Positions 230 through 57,644 of a DNA stretch of 64,000 nt are shown here, piece after piece (within the stretch, counting starts at the first letter, position 1; every line of letters begins with the position of its first letter). Source of the DNA: Candidatus Cloacimonadota bacterium (GTDB lineage Bacteria; Cloacimonadota; Cloacimonadia; G963667145); contig OY762943.1 of NCBI GenBank assembly GCA_963667145.1, positions 145,459-209,458 of the forward strand, read 5' to 3'. The notes under the pieces were generated by a model, which saw only the letters and a list, made by a program, of their open reading frames with translations, was not told where the DNA came from and searched no databases. Made by a program: the position numbers and the translations under genes.

Positions 230-2698
230 ATGAATTTATCAGATATACTGAAAGACTCAAATTATAAACTGACACAGTTTACGGAAGAGCAAATTAGAGC
301 TTTTGAGGAAAGTATTTCAACAAAAGAAGTCAGAGGAAAAGAAACTCCGTATGTAAAATGCTTGGTTCGTAATAAAGAAATAAAACTCACACCCGAAGAA
401 ACTGTTCGTCAGCTTTATGTGATGGTGCTTACAAAGGACTTTAGCTATCCTGTTTCTCGAATGGAATTGGAATATGCAGTTACTTTTGGGCGAGAGAAAA
501 AGAGAGCTGATATTGTTATCTTTGATAAAGACAAAACAACTACTCCTTACATTATTGTTGAGCTGAAAAAACCAAAATTGAAAGACGGGAAAGAACAACT
601 AAAATCTTATTGCAATGCTACTGGAGCTCCTATTGGAGTGTGGAGTAATGGCGATTCTATTTCTTATTACCATCGAAAAGATCCAAACTATTTTGAAGAT
701 TTGTCGGCTATACCTAATGCAAATGAAAAACTTTCTGACATACTTTCTGAAAGATGGACGATAAAGGAACTTGCAGAAAAAGATAAACTGTTTAGTGAGA
801 AGAAATCGTTGAAAGATTTGATTTTGGAAATGGAAGATGAAGTTTTGGCAAATGCTGGCGTGGATGTTTTTGAAGAACTTTTCAAGCTGATTTTCACTAA
901 GCTCTATGATGAAATGGAAAGTGGACGACATCCTGAGCGTCATTTGGTTTTTAGGAATTATGGTGATACCGAAACTGAATTGAAAAATAAAATTCAACAT
1001 CTATTTGATAAGGCGAAACAAAAATGGCAGGGAGTTTTCAGCGAAGATAGCAAAATAATGCTTACTCCATCGCACTTGTCGGTTTGCATTTCTTCTCTGC
1101 AAGATGTGAAACTCTTCAATTCCAACCTTGATGTGGTGGATGAGGCTTTTGAATACCTGATAAACAAGAGTAGCAAAGGAGAAAAAGGACAATACTTTAC
1201 GCCTCGCTACGTGATAGATATGTGTGTGAAAATGTTAAATCCCAAAGCAGATGAGAAGATGATAGACACAGCTGCAGGTAGCTGTGGCTTTCCTGTTCAT
1301 TCCATTTTCTATGTATGGGATCAGCAATTAATAGCTCGTGGATTGAGTAAAAGTCATAAGTTTACCACAGAGGAAAAATTCCCAGAGCAAATAGACTATG
1401 TTCGTGAGAATGTGTTTGCTATCGACTTTGATGAAAGAGCTGTGCGTGTGGCTCGGACTTTGAACCTAATAGCAGGCGATGGGCAGACCAATGTGATGCA
1501 TCTAAACACACTCGACTGGGAGCGTTGGGATGAAAAAACAGAAGATGAAGATTGGCAAGACACTTATTATGAAGGTTGGCGAAAGCTGAAGAGACTCAGG
1601 AAGGACAGAAACATTAATCGTGATTTTGAGTTTGATATTTTGATGGCAAATCCTCCATTCGCAGGAGATATTAAGGAAAGCAGAATTTTGGCAAGATACG
1701 AACTCGGCAAAAAGCCCAACGGTAAATATCAAACGAAGGTCGGTAGAGATATTTTGTTTATTGAGCGAAATCTTGATTTTCTGAAAGCTGGTGGACGAAT
1801 GGCAATTGTTCTTCCGCAAGGCAGATTTAACAATAGCAGTGATAAGCAGATTAGAGAATTTATTGCAGAACGGTGCAGGATTTTGGCTGTGGTTGGTTTG
1901 CATGGAAATGTCTTTAAACCACACACTGGCACCAAAACTTCTGTTCTATTGGTGCAGAAGTGGGATGAGCAACTTTGTCCCAAAAAAGAAGATTATCCGA
2001 TTTTCTTTGCCACTATGCAAGAGCCAAGCAAAGATAATAGTGGTGAGAAAATATTTGTACGCAAAAGTGATTTTCCAAAATTCCCCTCCTCGGGAGGGGT
2101 GGTCGAAGGTCGAGGTGGTAATTGTCGCAATTCCAAAAACTATTTTGCTTTGCCTTTCAATCCTGAGTTGAAGGAAAGAGCTAAAGAACTGAGAAAAGCA
2201 GGGAATTTGTCAGAAGTCCTATTTTGGCAACAGGTAAAAAATAAGAAATTTAAGTCTTTAGATTTCGACCGACAAAAAATTATTGGGAACTACATTGTTG
2301 ATTTTTATTGTGCTAATTGTAATCTCGTGATAGAAATAGATGGCGAGAGTCACAATGAAAAAGCTGAATATGATGCTAAAAGAGATTCTTATTTGGAAAG
2401 TTTGGGATTAACTGTAATTCATATTCCTGATATAGATGTTAAGAAGAATTTGAATGGGGTGATGGAGATGCTTTCTAACCACCCCGCCCTAAAGGGCACC
2501 CCTCCAGAGGAGGGGAAAGTGTCTGATGTGGTAGAACATTATGATGCTAATGCCAGCGATTTGAATGAATATTTGCTCGACACACACGGACATCTGATTG
2601 TGAAGCACGACCTTTTTAACCACGATGGACTAACCCAAGACGGCATTGCAGAAGCTTTTGCCGAGTTTGCCAAAAAGGAAAATTTAAGTTTTTTTTAG
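230..2698 (+). CDS. Restriction-modification subunit: N-terminal PD-(D/E)xK nuclease-like domain plus gamma-class N6-adenine DNA methyltransferase (HsdM/BcgIA-like), carrying an in-frame DUF559/Vsr-like endonuclease module (aa ~635-745) before a short C-terminal tail
   Basis: 822 aa. SAM motif I DTAAGSCGF and motif IV NPPFAGD. N-terminal ADIVIFD...YIIVELKKP resembles a PD-(D/E)xK (HsdR_N-type) motif. C-terminal LFWQQ...DFDRQKIIGNYIVDFYC...VIEIDGESH is DUF559-like. RBS aaagagga upstream. Confidence 0.8.
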   Translation: MNLSDILKDSNYKLTQFTEEQIRAFEESISTKEVRGKETPYVKCLVRNKEIKLTPEETVRQLYVMVLTKDFSYPVSRMELEYAVTFGREKKRADIVIFDKDKTTTPYIIVELKKPKLKDGKEQLKSYCNATGAPIGVWSNGDSISYYHRKDPNYFEDLSAIPNANEKLSDILSERWTIKELAEKDKLFSEKKSLKDLILEMEDEVLANAGVDVFEELFKLIFTKLYDEMESGRHPERHLVFRNYGDTETELKNKIQHLFDKAKQKWQGVFSEDSKIMLTPSHLSVCISSLQDVKLFNSNLDVVDEAFEYLINKSSKGEKGQYFTPRYVIDMCVKMLNPKADEKMIDTAAGSCGFPVHSIFYVWDQQLIARGLSKSHKFTTEEKFPEQIDYVRENVFAIDFDERAVRVARTLNLIAGDGQTNVMHLNTLDWERWDEKTEDEDWQDTYYEGWRKLKRLRKDRNINRDFEFDILMANPPFAGDIKESRILARYELGKKPNGKYQTKVGRDILFIERNLDFLKAGGRMAIVLPQGRFNNSSDKQIREFIAERCRILAVVGLHGNVFKPHTGTKTSVLLVQKWDEQLCPKKEDYPIFFATMQEPSKDNSGEKIFVRKSDFPKFPSSGGVVEGRGGNCRNSKNYFALPFNPELKERAKELRKAGNLSEVLFWQQVKNKKFKSLDFDRQKIIGNYIVDFYCANCNLVIEIDGESHNEKAEYDAKRDSYLESLGLTVIHIPDIDVKKNLNGVMEMLSNHPALKGTPPEEGKVSDVVEHYDANASDLNEYLLDTHGHLIVKHDLFNHDGLTQDGIAEAFAEFAKKENLSFF
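2083..2119. repeat. GC-rich palindromic hairpin repeat copy 1 (CCCCTCC-tcg-GGAGGGG + t-GGTCGAAGGTCGAGGTGGT tail), inside the methyltransferase ORF
   Basis: Perfect 7-bp inverted repeat with 3-nt loop. Extended copy is similar to copy 4 at 2747-2783 (15/19 tail identity). Confidence 0.7.
2481..2515. repeat. GC-rich palindromic hairpin repeat copy 2 (GCCCtaaaGGGC followed by CCCCTCC-aga-GGAGGGG), inside the methyltransferase ORF immediately after the DUF559 module
   Basis: Two adjacent short palindromes. The second is the same CCCCTCC/GGAGGGG stem as copies 1, 3 and 4. Confidence 0.65.
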
Positions 2699-2701
2699 TT
2701 T

Positions 2702-2721
2702 CCCCTCCCACTGAGGAGGGG
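2702..2721. repeat. GC-rich palindromic hairpin repeat copy 3 (CCCCTCC-cactga-GGAGGGG), directly after the methyltransferase stop codon
   Basis: Same 7-bp stem. Located 4 nt after TAG 2696-2698. Confidence 0.65.
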
Positions 2722-2724
2722 TGT

Positions 2725-4254
2725 TTGCAAAATGGGACTAAAAATTCCCCTCCTTTGGAGGGGTTGTCGAAGACCGGGGTGGTTGAACCTTTCAACGAAG
2801 CGAAATATAAAGCACTGTTGGAAGGGCTGGAAGCAGTTGAATTAGATAAAAGTATAGTTTTTAAAAATAATAAATACTTGAGAATTGATAATGAATTTTT
2901 CAATAAAAGATTTATTAAAGAAATAATTAAACTTGAGGAAAAGCCTAATGAAAAATTAATTAATATTTCTAATTTAATAACTGACTTTGGGGCTTTTTCG
3001 CAAATGAATTTTGTGAATTATATTGAAAAAGGAGTTCCTTTTATTAGAAATCAAAATGTTAAAGATAATTTAATAGATACTACAGATATTGTTTATGTTG
3101 ACAAGAAAACATACAATAAACTTTCTCTTAAATTAGAAGAAAATGACATTTTAATACCAAGAGCTGGAACATTGGGGAATGCAGCTGTAGTTTCAAAATC
3201 ATTACTTCCTGCTACTGCTAATCAGAATTTAGCTCAAATAAAACCAAATTTGAATAAAATAAAACCATATTATTTAACAACTTTTTTATGTTCAAAATTT
3301 GGATTAAATCAGATAGAAAGATTTTCTACTGGAAATGTTCAACAATGGTTAAATTTAGAAAATATTAACAATATTAAAATTCATATTCCATCAGAAAATT
3401 TTCAAAATTCAATTCATAATAAAATAATTAGTTCAATTGCATTAAAAAACAAATCCAAACTAACCTATTCCCAAGCTGAGAACTTATTACTTGAAACTCT
3501 TGGTTTAAAAAATTTTGAACCAAGCTGTGAGCCTGTAAACATTAAAAGTTTTAAAGAGTCTTTTGGCTCTTCGGGGCGATTAGATGCAGAATATTATCAG
3601 AAAAAGTATGAGGAAATTGAATTTGCTATAAAAAATTATTCAAATGGTTATAAACATTTTGGAAAATTTATAGAAAATTATTCAACAGGCTATCCATACA
3701 AAAGTGAAACTTACATTGAAAAAAAAGGTGTCCCGTTGATTAGAATAAATAATATAAACAAAGGGAATTTAGATATTTCAAACGCAATTCATATTCCTAA
3801 ACAAGACATAAATTTGAGTGTAAAAGATATTGCAGTTGAAAATGATATTTTAATTTCAATGTCTGGAACAATTGGAAATTCTTGTAAAATCCCAAAAGGA
3901 GTAAAAGCAGTAATAAACCAACGAATTATGAGAGTTACTCCGAAAAATTATAACAATGAAGTATTACCATTAATAATAAATTCTCAAATTGGAAATTTAC
4001 AATTGAATCAAATTGGAACAGGTGGCGTTCAAACAAATATTTCATCAAATGACATTAAAAATATTTTGATACCTGTATTAACAGAAAATTCACAACAACA
4101 AATCGCTGATTTGGTTGAAAAAAGTTTCAGCTTAAAGGCTCAATCCGAGCAACTACTCAAAACTGCCAAAAATGCGGTAGAAATCGCCATTGAGGAAAAT
4201 GAAGAGATTGCTATGGAGTATTTAAAACAAGAAGAGAATAAAAATGCCAAATAA
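2725..4254 (+). CDS. hsdS: Restriction-modification specificity subunit (HsdS/BcgIB-like) with two target-recognition domains; N-terminal boundary uncertain
   Basis: Two TRD halves: GVPFIRNQNVKDNLIDTTDIVYV and GVPLIRINNINKGNLDISNAIHIP. These resemble the EcoKI HsdS TRD start IRANNIQNGKFDTTDLVFV. Central and C-terminal helical spacer regions are present. Very AT-rich. The first 20 codons are encoded by hairpin copy 4, so the true start may be downstream (e.g. TTG 2878). Confidence 0.75.
   Translation: MQNGTKNSPPLEGLSKTGVVEPFNEAKYKALLEGLEAVELDKSIVFKNNKYLRIDNEFFNKRFIKEIIKLEEKPNEKLINISNLITDFGAFSQMNFVNYIEKGVPFIRNQNVKDNLIDTTDIVYVDKKTYNKLSLKLEENDILIPRAGTLGNAAVVSKSLLPATANQNLAQIKPNLNKIKPYYLTTFLCSKFGLNQIERFSTGNVQQWLNLENINNIKIHIPSENFQNSIHNKIISSIALKNKSKLTYSQAENLLLETLGLKNFEPSCEPVNIKSFKESFGSSGRLDAEYYQKKYEEIEFAIKNYSNGYKHFGKFIENYSTGYPYKSETYIEKKGVPLIRINNINKGNLDISNAIHIPKQDINLSVKDIAVENDILISMSGTIGNSCKIPKGVKAVINQRIMRVTPKNYNNEVLPLIINSQIGNLQLNQIGTGGVQTNISSNDIKNILIPVLTENSQQQIADLVEKSFSLKAQSEQLLKTAKNAVEIAIEENEEIAMEYLKQEENKNAK
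2747..2783. repeat. GC-rich palindromic hairpin repeat copy 4 (CCCCTCC-ttt-GGAGGGG + t-TGTCGAAGACCGGGGTGGT tail), in the annotated 5' end of the specificity gene
   Basis: Direct repeat of copy 1 including the tail. GC-rich island in a ~25% GC context. Confidence 0.7.
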
Positions 4255-5077
4255 TCAAGAAAATATAAAAAGTTGGATAGAGCAGTCTAAAATAGATTAT
4301 ATTGGACATTATATAAAAGCTTGGATTCCTTTTAATGCTTGGTATAATAATGTATTCCCAAGTTTAAATTCTGACAGAGAGAAAATTTCTGCTATAAAAA
4401 AAGAAGCTAACACAGTTCGAAATGCTATTAATTCTTATATGGAAACAGAAGCACAAGAGGGCTCATCATTTCGTAGTTATATTTCAGGATTATACTTTCA
4501 ATTACAGCAAAATGAAATTTATGGTCGTGATGATAGAATTTGGTTTGAAACAATTTTAAAAGAAAAAAATTCTGATAACTTAATCAATAATGAAGCATTT
4601 AGGCATAATAAATATTACTTATCTCGAACTGATGGTAGAAATCTTGGAGATGTAACGGAGATTAAAGTTGTTTTAAAAAAGAAATCGAATAATCAAACTG
4701 TTTTTACTTATATTCACCCAAATTATGATTTAGAACATTTGCAATCAAATAGTGAATTTAAAAAATTGTCACAAAACCAACAAGAAAATATTAGATTGCT
4801 ATTTGAAAAACTTACGCCAATAAAAACATATTCAATTATAGAAAATAATATAAAAGAAAATCCTAAAAATTATTATGAATGTGATTCTTATAATTTCAGA
4901 AGAGAAGTTTTAGATGAAAATTGCAAATCAATATATGTTTGTAAGGCTCTTATTGAAATATTGTATCAACTGAGAAATGTAGTGTTTCACGGGGAATTAG
5001 TTCCCAATGATGGAGCTCAAAATGTATATAAGGAAGCATACCATCTTTTAAGAATGATTCTTGATAAAATCAGATAA
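4244..5077 (+). CDS. Hypothetical protein with C-terminal HEPN-like R-x4-H motif (possible Abi/DUF4145-type RNase toxin associated with the R-M locus)
   Basis: 277 aa, AT-rich like hsdS. C-terminal helix ALIEILYQLRNVVFHGEL carries R-N-x-x-x-H-G as in HEPN Rx4-6H active sites. Overlaps hsdS stop by 11 nt, suggesting operonic linkage. Confidence 0.4.
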   Translation: MPNNQENIKSWIEQSKIDYIGHYIKAWIPFNAWYNNVFPSLNSDREKISAIKKEANTVRNAINSYMETEAQEGSSFRSYISGLYFQLQQNEIYGRDDRIWFETILKEKNSDNLINNEAFRHNKYYLSRTDGRNLGDVTEIKVVLKKKSNNQTVFTYIHPNYDLEHLQSNSEFKKLSQNQQENIRLLFEKLTPIKTYSIIENNIKENPKNYYECDSYNFRREVLDENCKSIYVCKALIEILYQLRNVVFHGELVPNDGAQNVYKEAYHLLRMILDKIR

Positions 5078-5146
5078 ATTTAGTTTCCAACAAATCTTTC
5101 GATTTAGATTTACATTTTATCAGCACATTTTTCAAAAAGCATCGTT

Positions 5147-6796
5147 ATGAATTCAATATTTAAGCCGAAATTTTTTACAGTCCTGAGAGCAGGAATTGGA
5201 AAGAAGCAGATAGTCGTCGACATCTTGTCGGGAATAGTCGTTGGCATTGTCGCTTTGCCTTTGGCGATAGCGTTCGCCGTGGCTTCTGGTGTGTCTCCCG
5301 AAAAAGGTCTGATTACAGCCATTGTAGCTGGATTTATCATCTCTTTGCTTGGTGGCAGTCGCGTGCAGATTGGAGGTCCGACTGGTGCCTTCATCGTCAT
5401 AGTTTATGGAATCGTTGAGACTTATGGGATAGATGGTCTTATCATTTCCACTATTTTGGCGGGAGTGATTTTGATTATTTTTGGACTGCTGAAAATGGGT
5501 ACTTTGCTCAAATTTTTTCCGCATTCTTTGATAGTTGGCTTCACCAGTGGGATAGCTGTGACGATTTTTTCCACGCAAATCAAGGACGCCTTGGGTCTGT
5601 CCATTGCCAAAGTTCCGTCCGAATTTTATCAGAAGTGGCTTGTGTATTTTGCAAATATCTCACAGGTGAACTGGACTGCTATTGCCATCACTGTGTTCAC
5701 GATTTTGGTAACTTTCCATTCCAAAAAATTCACCTCCAAAATTCCCGGTTCGTTCTTGGCGATTGTCATCGTTACGCCTTTGGTCTATTTTTTGCAGTTG
5801 GATGTGGCGACCATCGAGACTTTTTTCGGTGCAATTCCCAGTAGCTTCAGCTTTGCGTTTCCGCGAGTTAGCCTTGGCGATTTGCACAACTACATCGCAC
5901 CTGCTCTGACCATCGCTTTGCTTGGCGGAATAGAATCTTTGCTCTCGGCTGTGGTTGCGGACGGCATGATTAGTGGCAAGCATCGTTCCAACACGGAATT
6001 GATAGCTCAGGGGATAGCGAATATTGTAACGCCATTTTTCGGTGGAATCCCTGCCACAGGTGCTATAGCTCGCACAGCCACGAATGTGAAAAACGGGGGA
6101 AGAACTCCGATTTCTGGCATGGTGCATGCTCTCACGTTGCTGTTGATAATGCTCTTCCTCGGTCGCTGGGCAAAGCTGATTCCCATGTCGTGCTTGGCTG
6201 GAATTTTGATAGTGGTTTCCTACAATATGAGCGAGTGGCGGTCATTTGTGGCGATTTTGCGTGGCTCTTATTTCGATGTTCTTATTTTGCTCACAACATT
6301 TTTGATTACCGTGTTTTTCGATTTGACTTTGGCAATTGAAGTTGGCGTTATGCTCTCAGCAATTCTTTTCATGAAGCGGATGTCCGATATTAGCGAAAAG
6401 CGGATTGAGGATGTTGTGGATAACGATATTCTGGACAATTATTCCGACTTGCCCAGAGAGATAAAAATTTATGAGATAAGCGGACCTTTATTTTTTGCGT
6501 GTGCCAGAACTTATTCCGAGGCTATTGCCGAGATAGGATTGCGGTGCAAGGTGCTTATCATCAGGATGCGTCACGTTTCTTTTATCGACCAGACAGGCTT
6601 GCACAATTTGCACGATGTTTTGTCTATTTTGCGGAAGAAAAATATCTCCGTGATTATCTCTGGTGTTAATGCCGAAGTCAAGGAAGAACTGATAAATCAC
6701 CGTTTTGACGATTTGATTTCCCCAGAGTTGATAGTGGACAATTTCAAAGTTGCTACCGAAAAAGGCAAAGAGATTTTGCAGGCTAACGAGTCCTAA
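5147..6796 (+). CDS. SulP-family inorganic anion (sulfate/bicarbonate) permease with C-terminal STAS domain
   Basis: 549 aa, about 10 predicted TM segments. N-terminal GIVVGIVALPLAIAFAVASGVSPEKGLITAIVAGF is the SulP signature region. C-terminal STAS-like fold. Confidence 0.85.
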   Translation: MNSIFKPKFFTVLRAGIGKKQIVVDILSGIVVGIVALPLAIAFAVASGVSPEKGLITAIVAGFIISLLGGSRVQIGGPTGAFIVIVYGIVETYGIDGLIISTILAGVILIIFGLLKMGTLLKFFPHSLIVGFTSGIAVTIFSTQIKDALGLSIAKVPSEFYQKWLVYFANISQVNWTAIAITVFTILVTFHSKKFTSKIPGSFLAIVIVTPLVYFLQLDVATIETFFGAIPSSFSFAFPRVSLGDLHNYIAPALTIALLGGIESLLSAVVADGMISGKHRSNTELIAQGIANIVTPFFGGIPATGAIARTATNVKNGGRTPISGMVHALTLLLIMLFLGRWAKLIPMSCLAGILIVVSYNMSEWRSFVAILRGSYFDVLILLTTFLITVFFDLTLAIEVGVMLSAILFMKRMSDISEKRIEDVVDNDILDNYSDLPREIKIYEISGPLFFACARTYSEAIAEIGLRCKVLIIRMRHVSFIDQTGLHNLHDVLSILRKKNISVIISGVNAEVKEELINHRFDDLISPELIVDNFKVATEKGKEILQANES

Positions 6797-57221: not shown

Positions 57222-57644
57222 ATGGACAAATACACAGAGCTTTTGAAAAATAAAAATATTTCACCCTCAATTCAGAGGGTGAAAGTCTTGCAATATTTGG
57301 ATAACAATAGGGTTCATCCGACTGTGGAGCAGATTTATTCGGGAATCAAGGGTCAGTTGCCTACTTTGTCCAAAACTACTGTTTATAATGTGTTGCAGTT
57401 GTTGGAAGAGAAGAAGATTATCAAGTCTATCAGTGGTTCGGATGGCAGAGAGCATTACGATTTTTGCAGGTTGCCTCACGGGCATTTCAAATGTACTGAA
57501 TGCGGGGATGTGTATGATGTGGAAGAAAATTTTGTTTACCAAGGCTCACAGATGATAGATGGGCATAAGATTAACGATTACAATTTGTTGTTCAAGGGGA
57601 TTTGCAGGAATTGCTTGAAGAAAGGGGGAGAAAATGATAAGTAA
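57222..57644 (+). CDS. Fur-family transcriptional regulator (PerR-like by context)
   Basis: 140 aa. Winged-helix N-terminus, HxH and CxxC...CxxC metal sites (HGHFKCTECG...CRNC). Confidence 0.8.
   Translation: MDKYTELLKNKNISPSIQRVKVLQYLDNNRVHPTVEQIYSGIKGQLPTLSKTTVYNVLQLLEEKKIIKSISGSDGREHYDFCRLPHGHFKCTECGDVYDVEENFVYQGSQMIDGHKINDYNLLFKGICRNCLKKGGENDK

Follow-up and report, generated by a model that had tools for sequence, protein, structure and literature searches.

An in-frame DUF559 nuclease cassette bounded by double-hairpin repeats in a restriction-modification methylase gene of a Cloacimonadota bacterium

Why does a DNA methyltransferase gene carry a nuclease domain between two copies of a GC-rich hairpin, and why do two more of these hairpins stand where it meets the gene of the specificity (S) subunit? 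We consider this question for a stretch of 64,000 nucleotides from Candidatus Cloacimonadota bacterium (assembly GCA_963667145.1, contig OY762943.1, positions 145,459 to 209,458), hereafter the window, in which the hairpins surround a module of the DUF559 family. A sequence-only reading of this DNA had proposed that the hairpins bound an endonuclease module, mobile or recombinogenic, that was inserted in-frame into a restriction-modification (R-M) gene. This proposal is supported by homologs without the insert, by the polyphyly of the alleles that have it, by footprints and by recurrence of the insert elsewhere. We consider it probable that the insert is a selfish cassette tolerated in an inter-domain linker, that its nuclease is kept active by selection and that it has moved repeatedly between R-M genes and phyla. 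The instance in the window is an ordinary member of a large and apparently undescribed family; no description of the unit or the cassette was found in the literature searched.

The pattern CCCCTCC-N{2,8}-GGAGGGG has four exact matches in the window, at 2083-2099, 2499-2515, 2702-2721 and 2747-2763 (copies 1 to 4), where dinucleotide shuffling gives an expectation of 0.00 matches. All eight CCCCTCC heptamers of the 64 kb lie inside these four hairpins, a search with up to 3 mismatches found no further hairpin or unit copy in the 64 kb, and the one other perfect GC-rich hairpin with a stem of at least 7 bp in the window, at 57262, is unrelated. The pattern, heptamer and mismatch scans bear out the four positions first read (2083, 2499, 2702 and 2747) and the statement that the motif occurs nowhere else in the 64 kb. 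The sequence-only reading was also right about what surrounds the copies. The DUF559 segment lies between copies 1 and 2 (Pfam DUF559 at amino acids (aa) 647-748 of the open reading frame (ORF) 230-2698, that is nt 2168-2473), and 3' of copy 2 the ORF resumes the methylase C-terminal tail, which is the native tail of the family (HY..DL.EYLLDTHGHLIVKHDLFNHDGLT). Copy 3 lies beyond the stop codon (TAG at 2696-2698), copy 4, assigned to the start of the S ORF, lies within the open frame upstream of the S-subunit body, and the extended tail GTCGAAG..CG.GGTGGT is common to copies 1 and 4. The account of the symmetry stood only in part: copies 1 and 4 are direct repeats, as they are in a second locus (L085), but the key relation, the inversion of copy 2 relative to copy 1, had been missed. 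Likewise, the hairpins are real but are not stand-alone motifs, since each is only half of a double-hairpin unit.

The anatomy of this unit was derived by reading the DNA on either side of relatives of the DUF559 module in 80 genomic loci. The consensus consists of (A)ATT, CCCCTCC-NNN-GGAGGGG (hairpin 1), T(G), a variable GC-rich stem-loop-stem with mostly a GNA loop (hairpin 2), and (C)GGGGTGGT. The unit is 37-55 bp long (about 40 bp); hairpin 1 forms its outer half, and hairpin 2 is variable and covarying. Copies 1 and 4 are the unit on the + strand, and copy 2 is the unit on the - strand, bearing the extension on the other strand as ACCACCCCG-hairpin-CA ahead of hairpin 1. Copy 2 is an inverted unit, and therefore copies 1 and 2 are terminal inverted repeats of about 40 bp around the DUF559 module. 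When left units were compared with reverse-complemented right units, they aligned over about 45 nt in the window and in two other loci (L003 and L085). The left unit (copy 1, 2079-2119, + strand), delimited by pattern, folding and alignment, reads AATT-CCCCTCC-tcg-GGAGGGG-T-GGTCGAAGGTCGA-GGTGGT; compared with the family consensus GGTCgaaGACC-GGGGTGGT, its hairpin 2 shows slight decay, and the unit is translated as FPSSGGVVEGRGG. The right unit (copy 2, 2478-2517, - strand), delimited by folding and alignment, reads ACCACCCCG-CCCtaaaGGG-CA-CCCCTCC-aga-GGAGGGG-AA and encodes the conserved C-terminus of the module, HPALKGTPPEEG.

Hairpin 1 is fixed by the search pattern, and its invariance is uninformative. 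Hairpin 2 occurs in 182 distinct variants among the 337 units of all fetched loci, and a perfect stem of at least 4 bp is present in 85% of units versus 22% of shuffles. In a gap-free alignment of 32 distinct units, compensatory changes were found at 4 of 4 pairs with 99% of cells paired, and the observed covariation score was reached by none of 500 shuffles. Folded as single-stranded DNA, copies 1 and 2 form both predicted hairpins (-9.1 and -10.6 kcal/mol, z about -2.7), and copies 3 and 4 fold confidently for hairpin 1 only. C-GNA-G triloops prevail in hairpin 2; such triloops are a signature of very stable DNA mini-hairpins, not of RNA structure. An Rfam scan of 1900-2950 at E <=10 returned only noise, with no family for the unit or the cassette. 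From the GNA triloops and the absence of an Rfam match, we think that the structure of the unit acts at the DNA level. No terminator-like site was found at the units on the coding strand.

The units can also be read through as protein. Counted per frame in all six frames, a stop codon occurs in 6-20% of units versus 45% of random segments of the window, and translation of the units gives peptides with much Pro, Gly and Ser. Where units stand in tandem, the period is 42, 48 or 54 nt. Such arrays are found upstream of DUF559 in four loci (L016, L017, L021 and L022), and 42-, 48- and 54-nt arrays are also found inside ORFs of the restriction subunit HsdR. In one protein (P0203), six translated NPALTGTPPQEGN repeats from a tandem unit array were observed at the C-terminus of DUF559.

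Between the two units lies a DUF559/Vsr-like PD-(D/E)XK nuclease module (2123-2477, + strand, aa 632-750), which is in frame with its host and has no start or stop codon of its own. It was recognised by Pfam PF04480 (aa 647-748, E = 5.1e-29, 100.8 bits against a cut-off of 20.6), by a sequence match to the DUF559 protein of PDB 3HRL (E = 7.5e-16), by invariant columns and by AlphaFold. All 23 residues that are invariant in the clade are present in the window copy, including D60, E71, D73, H77 and K80. The AlphaFold model of the module has a predicted local distance difference test (pLDDT) score of 84.7, and Foldseek matched it, in order, to 3HRL, the catalytic domain of the homing endonuclease I-Bth0305I (template-modelling score 0.72 on the target, root-mean-square deviation 2.6 Å), PvuRts1I and Vsr. 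The cores of embedded modules are under purifying selection (dN/dS 0.06-0.12). Taken together, the conserved residues and the predicted model show the module to be a putatively functional nuclease with a Vsr-like fold. A model of the whole 822-aa protein (14-sequence alignment, pLDDT 47) gives only a weak hint that the module folds apart between low-confidence linkers.

Relatives of the module number 4,628 at E <=1e-10 and are 65-80% identical over Bacteroidota, Planctomycetota, Firmicutes, Proteobacteria and others. Translation of the units accounts for the extensions at their N- and C-termini (NSPPLEGW..DGVV, FPSxGGVxxGRGG and HPALKGTPPxEGN). No close plasmid-borne relatives were found, the best being 41% identical, and only three relatives lie on viral contigs (best 61%). 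Carriage by phages or plasmids is therefore unsupported.

The host of the cassette is an N6-adenine DNA methyltransferase of 822 aa with an N-terminal PD-(D/E)XK-type domain (230-2698, + strand), identified with Pfam, PADLOC and NCBIfam. HSDR_N_2 occupies aa 55-162 and N6_Mtase/Eco57I aa 301-606; the cassette interrupts at aa 617-763, and a short tail follows. This tail (2518-2698, + strand), KVSDVVEHYD...HGHLIVKHDLFNHDGLTQDGIAEAFAEFAKKENLSFF, was recognised as the native C-terminus of the methylase by alignment with empty homologs and by analysis of the junction; it ends with T_TTT_TTT (2689-2695) and TAG (2696-2698). The host belongs to an extremely conserved Bacteroidota family, in which homologs about 686 aa long and 82-84% identical over the body are found in their thousands. 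Of the 120 best methylase hits, about 110 are of this length and lack DUF559; eight have DUF559, each time in the one variable linker. A tree of the host part shows the filled alleles to be polyphyletic, with empty alleles as their nearest neighbours (P0002-P0038, 92%; P0003-P0020, 93%). Some empty alleles retain footprints of the cassette: FPKFPS…QEGN in P0015, …AAEGNF in P0038/L086 (DNA GGAGGGGAATT), and a solo degenerate unit, NSPSLNGWQSDGVV, in the linker of P0111. If DUF559 were a stable native part of the methylase, homologs carrying it without flanking repeats would be expected; the homologs that carry it always have these repeats.

The same situation is found in HsdR. Hundreds of HsdR proteins bear the module, including those of cultured isolates, and its insertion point is constant, between …AVNRAVESTLRA and ESPESYG…GGVVWHTQGSGKS. 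One filled allele (L009) is 93-96% identical in amino acids to empty alleles of 1067 aa and at most 90% identical to other filled alleles. The outer AATT present at both ends of the cassette may be part of the repeat or a palindromic duplication, and the best filled/empty pair of HsdR (89% DNA identity) shows no clear duplication. No canonical transposase is encoded. Other nuclease inserts were also seen in this protein. In one HsdR (L008, ORF 2939-6700), a GIY-YIG nuclease domain (aa 154-221) is inserted in the N-terminal HSDR_N region, and members of the same HsdR family (P0253, P0257, P0303, P0339 and P0286) have the GIY-YIG insert with or without DUF559, some with a PF15143 insert in addition. 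Nuclease domains are therefore inserted at several hot spots of HsdR.

Beyond these two hosts, the arrangement recurs widely. The 80 loci come from more than 15 phyla and contain 163 hairpin-1 copies, of which 130 are at most 300 bp away from the DUF559 gene, usually with a left-type unit about 40 bp upstream of DUF559 and a right-type unit overlapping its C-terminal codons. The motif had also been considered as a possible genome-wide element resembling the repetitive extragenic palindromic (REP) sequences, with no special association. It is indeed widely dispersed and REP-like, yet its link with DUF559 is strong and special. In about 35 of the 80 loci, a large ORF contains the module in-frame; the hosts are HsdR, HsdS, Type ISP enzymes, Type IIG enzymes of the Eco57I/MmeI type, N6_N4 methylases (Mod-type) and the present methylase family; it is also found upstream of a radical-SAM gene. 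R-M genes are present in at least 41 of the 80 loci, as judged with a deliberately small reference set. Cassettes of unit, DUF559 and unit elsewhere are 55-80% identical in amino acids and are either embedded or free in type I operons (for example L039). Host types are intermixed in the DUF559 tree, and copies embedded in the methylase fall in at least four places. The DNA of the cassette can be 86-91% identical across different bacterial classes, as among a Nitrosomonas, a Sideroxydans and a Geobacter, while the flanks are unalignable. More distant DUF559 relatives (below about 60% identity) are without units, which suggests that one DUF559 clade may have co-evolved with the units.

A type I locus of Pseudomonadales (L039, 1989-3995) shows the units in another setting. 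Its hsdS gene has in-frame pairs of right and left units at the N-terminus, between the target recognition domains (TRDs) TRD1 and TRD2, and at the C-terminus, and thus each TRD is bracketed like a DUF559 cassette. A free DUF559 gene and more tandem units follow hsdS and precede hsdM. Unit-mediated exchange of TRDs is a possibility.

The units also occur without the gene. When a metagenome collection was sampled by the unit pattern alone, 170 units were obtained from 120 loci. The commonest neighbour by far was DUF559 (16 of 148 ORFs), followed by R-M families, and the remainder were ordinary genes, mostly housekeeping. R-M genes were present in only 6 of these 120 loci; the R-M association is a property of the gene-bearing cassette, not of the unit. 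Many units are paired as left-to-right inverted doublets, 104-154 bp long, whose outer ends match those of the cassette; some doublets stand beside housekeeping genes. One family of doublets with a conserved spacer was found on four contigs, and one doublet retains the ATG-CGA start and the …PP.P.GTPPQEGN end, as expected of a derivative formed by internal deletion. No Y1 transposase family was found among the 25 most frequent neighbour families of the units.

Several familiar explanations of an in-frame insert were rejected. An intein does not fit, as Pfam finds no Hint or intein family in the 822 aa and the junctions, ...DFPKF|PSSGG and ...PPEEG|KVSD, lack splice-site residues. A group I or group II intron was dismissed on the lack of any Rfam match above noise in 1900-2950 and on the host frame, which runs uninterrupted through the insert. 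The units stand on both sides in inverted orientation, and no integrase adjoins the locus in the window or in L083-L086, which speaks against an integron gene cassette. A recently transferred 3' block common to the window and L085 was also discarded, with identity of about 74-76% throughout and tails that are no closer.

We propose the following course of events for the selfish cassette that we favour. A cassette of about 440 bp was inserted in the variable linker between the catalytic body of the methylase and its C-terminal tail, and the degenerate copy 3 and copy 4 are further insertions at the junction with the S gene. With few stops and a translation rich in Pro, Gly and Ser, the units would let the host frame run through, and the nuclease, having lost its own start and stop, would be made as an internal domain on flexible tethers. 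The nuclease may break the empty homologous site, or the units when their hairpins are extruded or single-stranded, and recombinational repair may then copy the cassette in, in the manner of homing or of REPIN-type spread. As by-products, copies 1 and 4 would stand as direct repeats and copies 1 and 2 as inverted repeats, each pair itself able to recombine, and the solo units and inverted doublets without the gene would be scattered derivatives of the cassette family. A bolder form of this proposal, which we put forward only tentatively, is that the units and the DUF559 clade form an unrecognised class of mobile element. In this form, the nuclease would recognise and cut its own GNA-loop DNA hairpins, as single strands or cruciforms, spread itself together with gene-less doublets, colonise R-M genes by preference and in-frame in more than 15 phyla and drive the exchange of domains and TRDs.

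A number of results weigh against the selfish cassette. No event of transposition, homing, excision or inversion was observed, and a PD-(D/E)XK nuclease alone is incapable of strand transfer; the mechanism of mobility is therefore conjecture. No near-identical (>99%) pair of filled and empty alleles was found that would fix the exact boundaries or any target-site duplication. In the free-standing loci L050, L058, L024 and L035, and also in L036 and L045, the arrangement is flipped, with a right-type unit upstream, a left-type unit downstream and hairpin 1 inward; a simple transposon model with terminal inverted repeats fails to predict those loci. DUF559 is present in only 20 of the 120 unit-sampled loci, where neighbouring ORFs span 163 Pfam families, and the units could be mobilised by something other than DUF559. 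The 64-kb window holds no additional unit, so that this genome gives no sign of active spread. Furthermore, a domain that benefits the host would account just as well for the strong purifying selection on the embedded module and for its almost exclusive occurrence in R-M settings.

This last point leads to the view that DUF559 is a domesticated accessory domain, a functional addition to R-M systems (as a second nuclease, in repair or nicking, or against evasion) that was recruited repeatedly, with the units as recombination-prone linker joints. The dN/dS of 0.06-0.12 with all invariant residues kept, an R-M context that is almost constant whether the module is embedded or free-standing, and the hundreds of HsdR proteins with the module, cultured isolates included, agree with such a role. 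However, the hosts are disparate, from HsdR, HsdS and the M-type methylase to Type ISP and Type IIG enzymes and a position upstream of a radical-SAM gene. For each host, the majority of close homologs are without the module and otherwise little different, and footprints of its loss remain. Conserved terminal inverted repeats and gene-less doublets, moreover, mark an element and not a domain. We regard domestication as unlikely. Another view takes the units as an autonomous REP-like repeat, moved by an unidentified enzyme or by replication slippage and accumulating at any place that tolerates an insertion, and DUF559 as a separate selfish gene, or one prone to horizontal transfer, whose borders are a favoured landing site. 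The 100 of 120 unit-sampled loci without DUF559, with neighbours that are mostly housekeeping genes, and the occurrence of tandem arrays and of both relative orientations would follow naturally from it. The fixed geometry would not: the right unit supplies the conserved C-terminal codons HPAL..GTPP.EGN, and a few codons separate the end of the left unit from the conserved RN(S/T)KNYF. DUF559 is also the top neighbour by far (16 of 148 ORFs), doublets have the outer boundaries of the cassette and at least one keeps the first and last codons of the ORF, and DUF559 relatives below about 60% identity are without units, suggesting co-evolution of one clade. We give independent units only a small chance of being the correct explanation.

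Alternatively, the units might act as a recombination switch, in which the inverted pair (copies 1 and 2) or the direct pair (copies 1 and 4) drives programmed inversion or deletion, truncates the methylase (M) ahead of its C-terminal tail, uncouples S and makes the R-M system phase-variable. If 2083-2515 were inverted, M would meet a stop at aa 649; loss of the DNA between copies 1 and 4 would end it at aa 630. One hairpin-2 variant is common to copies 1 and 4 and another to the corresponding pair of L085, indicating concerted evolution or exchange, and unit pairs flank each TRD of the L039 hsdS. DUF559 coding sequences are also enriched (odds ratio 14) among predicted gene-altering programmed inversions (PMC9881135). 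Nevertheless, neither the window nor any homologous locus examined has a recombinase gene next to these genes, and two independent assemblies of the locus (L001 and L002) show no variant arrangement. The repeats are only about 40 bp long, and the second direct copy is missing from most cassettes elsewhere. A programmed switch is, in our judgement, very unlikely.

The two remaining hairpins of the window belong to the junction between M and S. Copy 3 (2699-2742, + strand) is a degenerate unit by folding and by comparison with L085; its hairpin 1 has a 6-nt loop, its hairpin 2 and GGGGTGGT are lost, and its homolog in L085 is the first junction unit there. Copy 4 (2743-2783, + strand), recognised by alignment and folding, is a solo left-type unit, AATT-CCCCTCC-ttt-GGAGGGG-TT-GTCgaaGAC-CGGGGTGGT. 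Its hairpin 2 is of the same family as that of copy 1. Copy 4 has no stop in the frame of S, the -1 frame relative to M, and is read there as NSPPLEGLSKTGVV. The body of the S subunit, which starts with the conserved EPFNEAKYKALLEGLE, follows at 2785-4254 (+ strand); it was assigned with Pfam Methylase_S, PADLOC Specificity_I and mad5, and comparison of the junction in nine loci, and the annotated Methylase_S ORF is 2725-4254. The layout of L085 (P0002) is that of the window: left unit, DUF559, right unit, M tail, stop, degenerate unit and left-type unit. In hairpin 2, the last unit of L085 matches the left repeat of that locus exactly, and copies 1 and 4 of the window share a different variant. 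These shared variants at the two sites therefore point to exchange between the sites or to a common origin.

How is S translated across this junction? Nine loci were compared (the window, L004, L083-L086 and L210-L213 being the loci named for this comparison). In all nine, the conserved N-terminus of S, (S)PFNEAKYKALLEGLE, lies in the -1 frame of M, and this frame stays open where M stops. The empty loci have no ATG, GTG or TTG upstream of the S motif, and L083 has none over 40 codons. A canonical slippery heptamer, T_TTT_TTT or G_GGA_AAG, stands directly before the M stop in 9 of 9 loci. The inserts at the junction, +84 nt in the window and +93 nt in L085, are both multiples of 3 and free of stops in the -1 frame. 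On these sequence features, we consider a programmed -1 ribosomal frameshift that fuses M to S probable, and copies 3 and 4 would then probably be translated in the -1 frame as an extra linker between M and S. No literature on an M-S frameshift in this methylase family was found.

As for the class of the system, PADLOC MTase_I PDLC03034 matches the host methylase in two stretches with 1129 bits. The N6_Mtase catalytic domain and the adjacent Methylase_S gene are those of a Type I-like or MADS-like methylase with separate S; the NCBIfam MAD2/MAD5 (MADS2-like) matches are below the curated cut-offs, and the host was accordingly not filed as MADS. The G+C content is 15-30% over the body of the S gene and the next ORF (2850-5100), compared with about 40% in M and in the window overall, and the specificity part of the locus looks compositionally foreign. 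This next ORF (4244-5077, 277 aa) overlaps the stop of S and has no match in Pfam, NCBIfam or PADLOC. Homologous loci also have a small gene of unknown family 3' of S, and the ORF may be a third component of the R-M-like system. No tRNA or tmRNA integration sites were found in the window.

Comparison with known systems places the cassette between several of them. REP/REPIN-RAYT systems, named in part for their REP-associated tyrosine transposase (RAYT), consist of short GC-rich palindromes that occur as singlets, arrays and inverted doublets, with a single associated gene flanked by inverted units. On the one hand, the present family has the same dispersed palindromic units, inverted doublets and inverted units around an associated gene. 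On the other hand, the flanked gene here encodes a Vsr-like PD-(D/E)XK DUF559 protein and not an HUH/Y1 transposase of the IS200/IS605 type. The unit is also, unlike REP, a double hairpin conserved in sequence across phyla; units and gene are often in-frame inside coding regions, and the gene is strongly tied to R-M loci. With DNA transposons of the insertion sequence and miniature inverted-repeat type, the family shares terminal inverted repeats and gene-less left-to-right doublets. Rickettsia palindromic elements are palindromic repeats of about 100-150 bp that lie in-frame in genes and are translated; they encode no protein and are confined to Rickettsia. The present units are similarly in-frame in protein genes and tolerated as extra peptide, but they are about 40 bp long, cross phyla and are partnered with a nuclease gene. 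In the mitochondria of Allomyces, double-hairpin elements occur together with an in-frame endonuclease ORF at atp6, and yeast mitochondria have GC clusters. These resemble our case in combining short mobile GC-rich double hairpins with a mobile endonuclease ORF that is joined in-frame to its host gene; they are, however, organellar, their sequences are unrelated and the endonuclease is of another family.

Vsr-like (EDxHD) homing endonucleases such as I-Bth0305I sit in introns, inteins and 'fractured genes' (PMC3239194, PMC2677866). The cassette resembles them in the Vsr-like fold and in occupying a fixed site in conserved host genes with a patchy, polyphyletic distribution. It differs in being neither intron nor intein, in being bounded by hairpin inverted repeats and in staying in the mature protein. 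An in-frame homing insertion has also been described in a DNA methylase of the actinophage ShiLan, where an HNH endonuclease is hidden in an out-of-frame reading (PMC11855218). Both inserts have a DNA methylase as host, leave its frame free of stops, belong to neither the inteins nor the introns, bear an endonuclease and are homing-like. In our case, however, the nuclease is in the host frame and the hosts are bacterial chromosomes, not an actinophage; no hairpin terminal repeats were reported for ShiLan.

In summary, if the selfish cassette is the correct explanation, DUF559, a very common domain of unknown function, gains a role as the protein partner of a hairpin repeat that spans phyla. 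Annotated fusions of HsdR with a very-short-patch-repair endonuclease, and oddly long R-M genes, would then be carriers of a selfish insert. The cassette would also represent an in-frame route, without intein or intron, by which nuclease genes persist inside proteins with essential domains. The GC-rich units encode ready-made flexible linkers and provide a simple rule for the tolerance of repeats in coding DNA. The units that bracket the TRDs of HsdS in L039 may contribute to the shuffling of specificity, and the probable M-S frameshift would be a new way to set subunit stoichiometry in a widespread methylase family.

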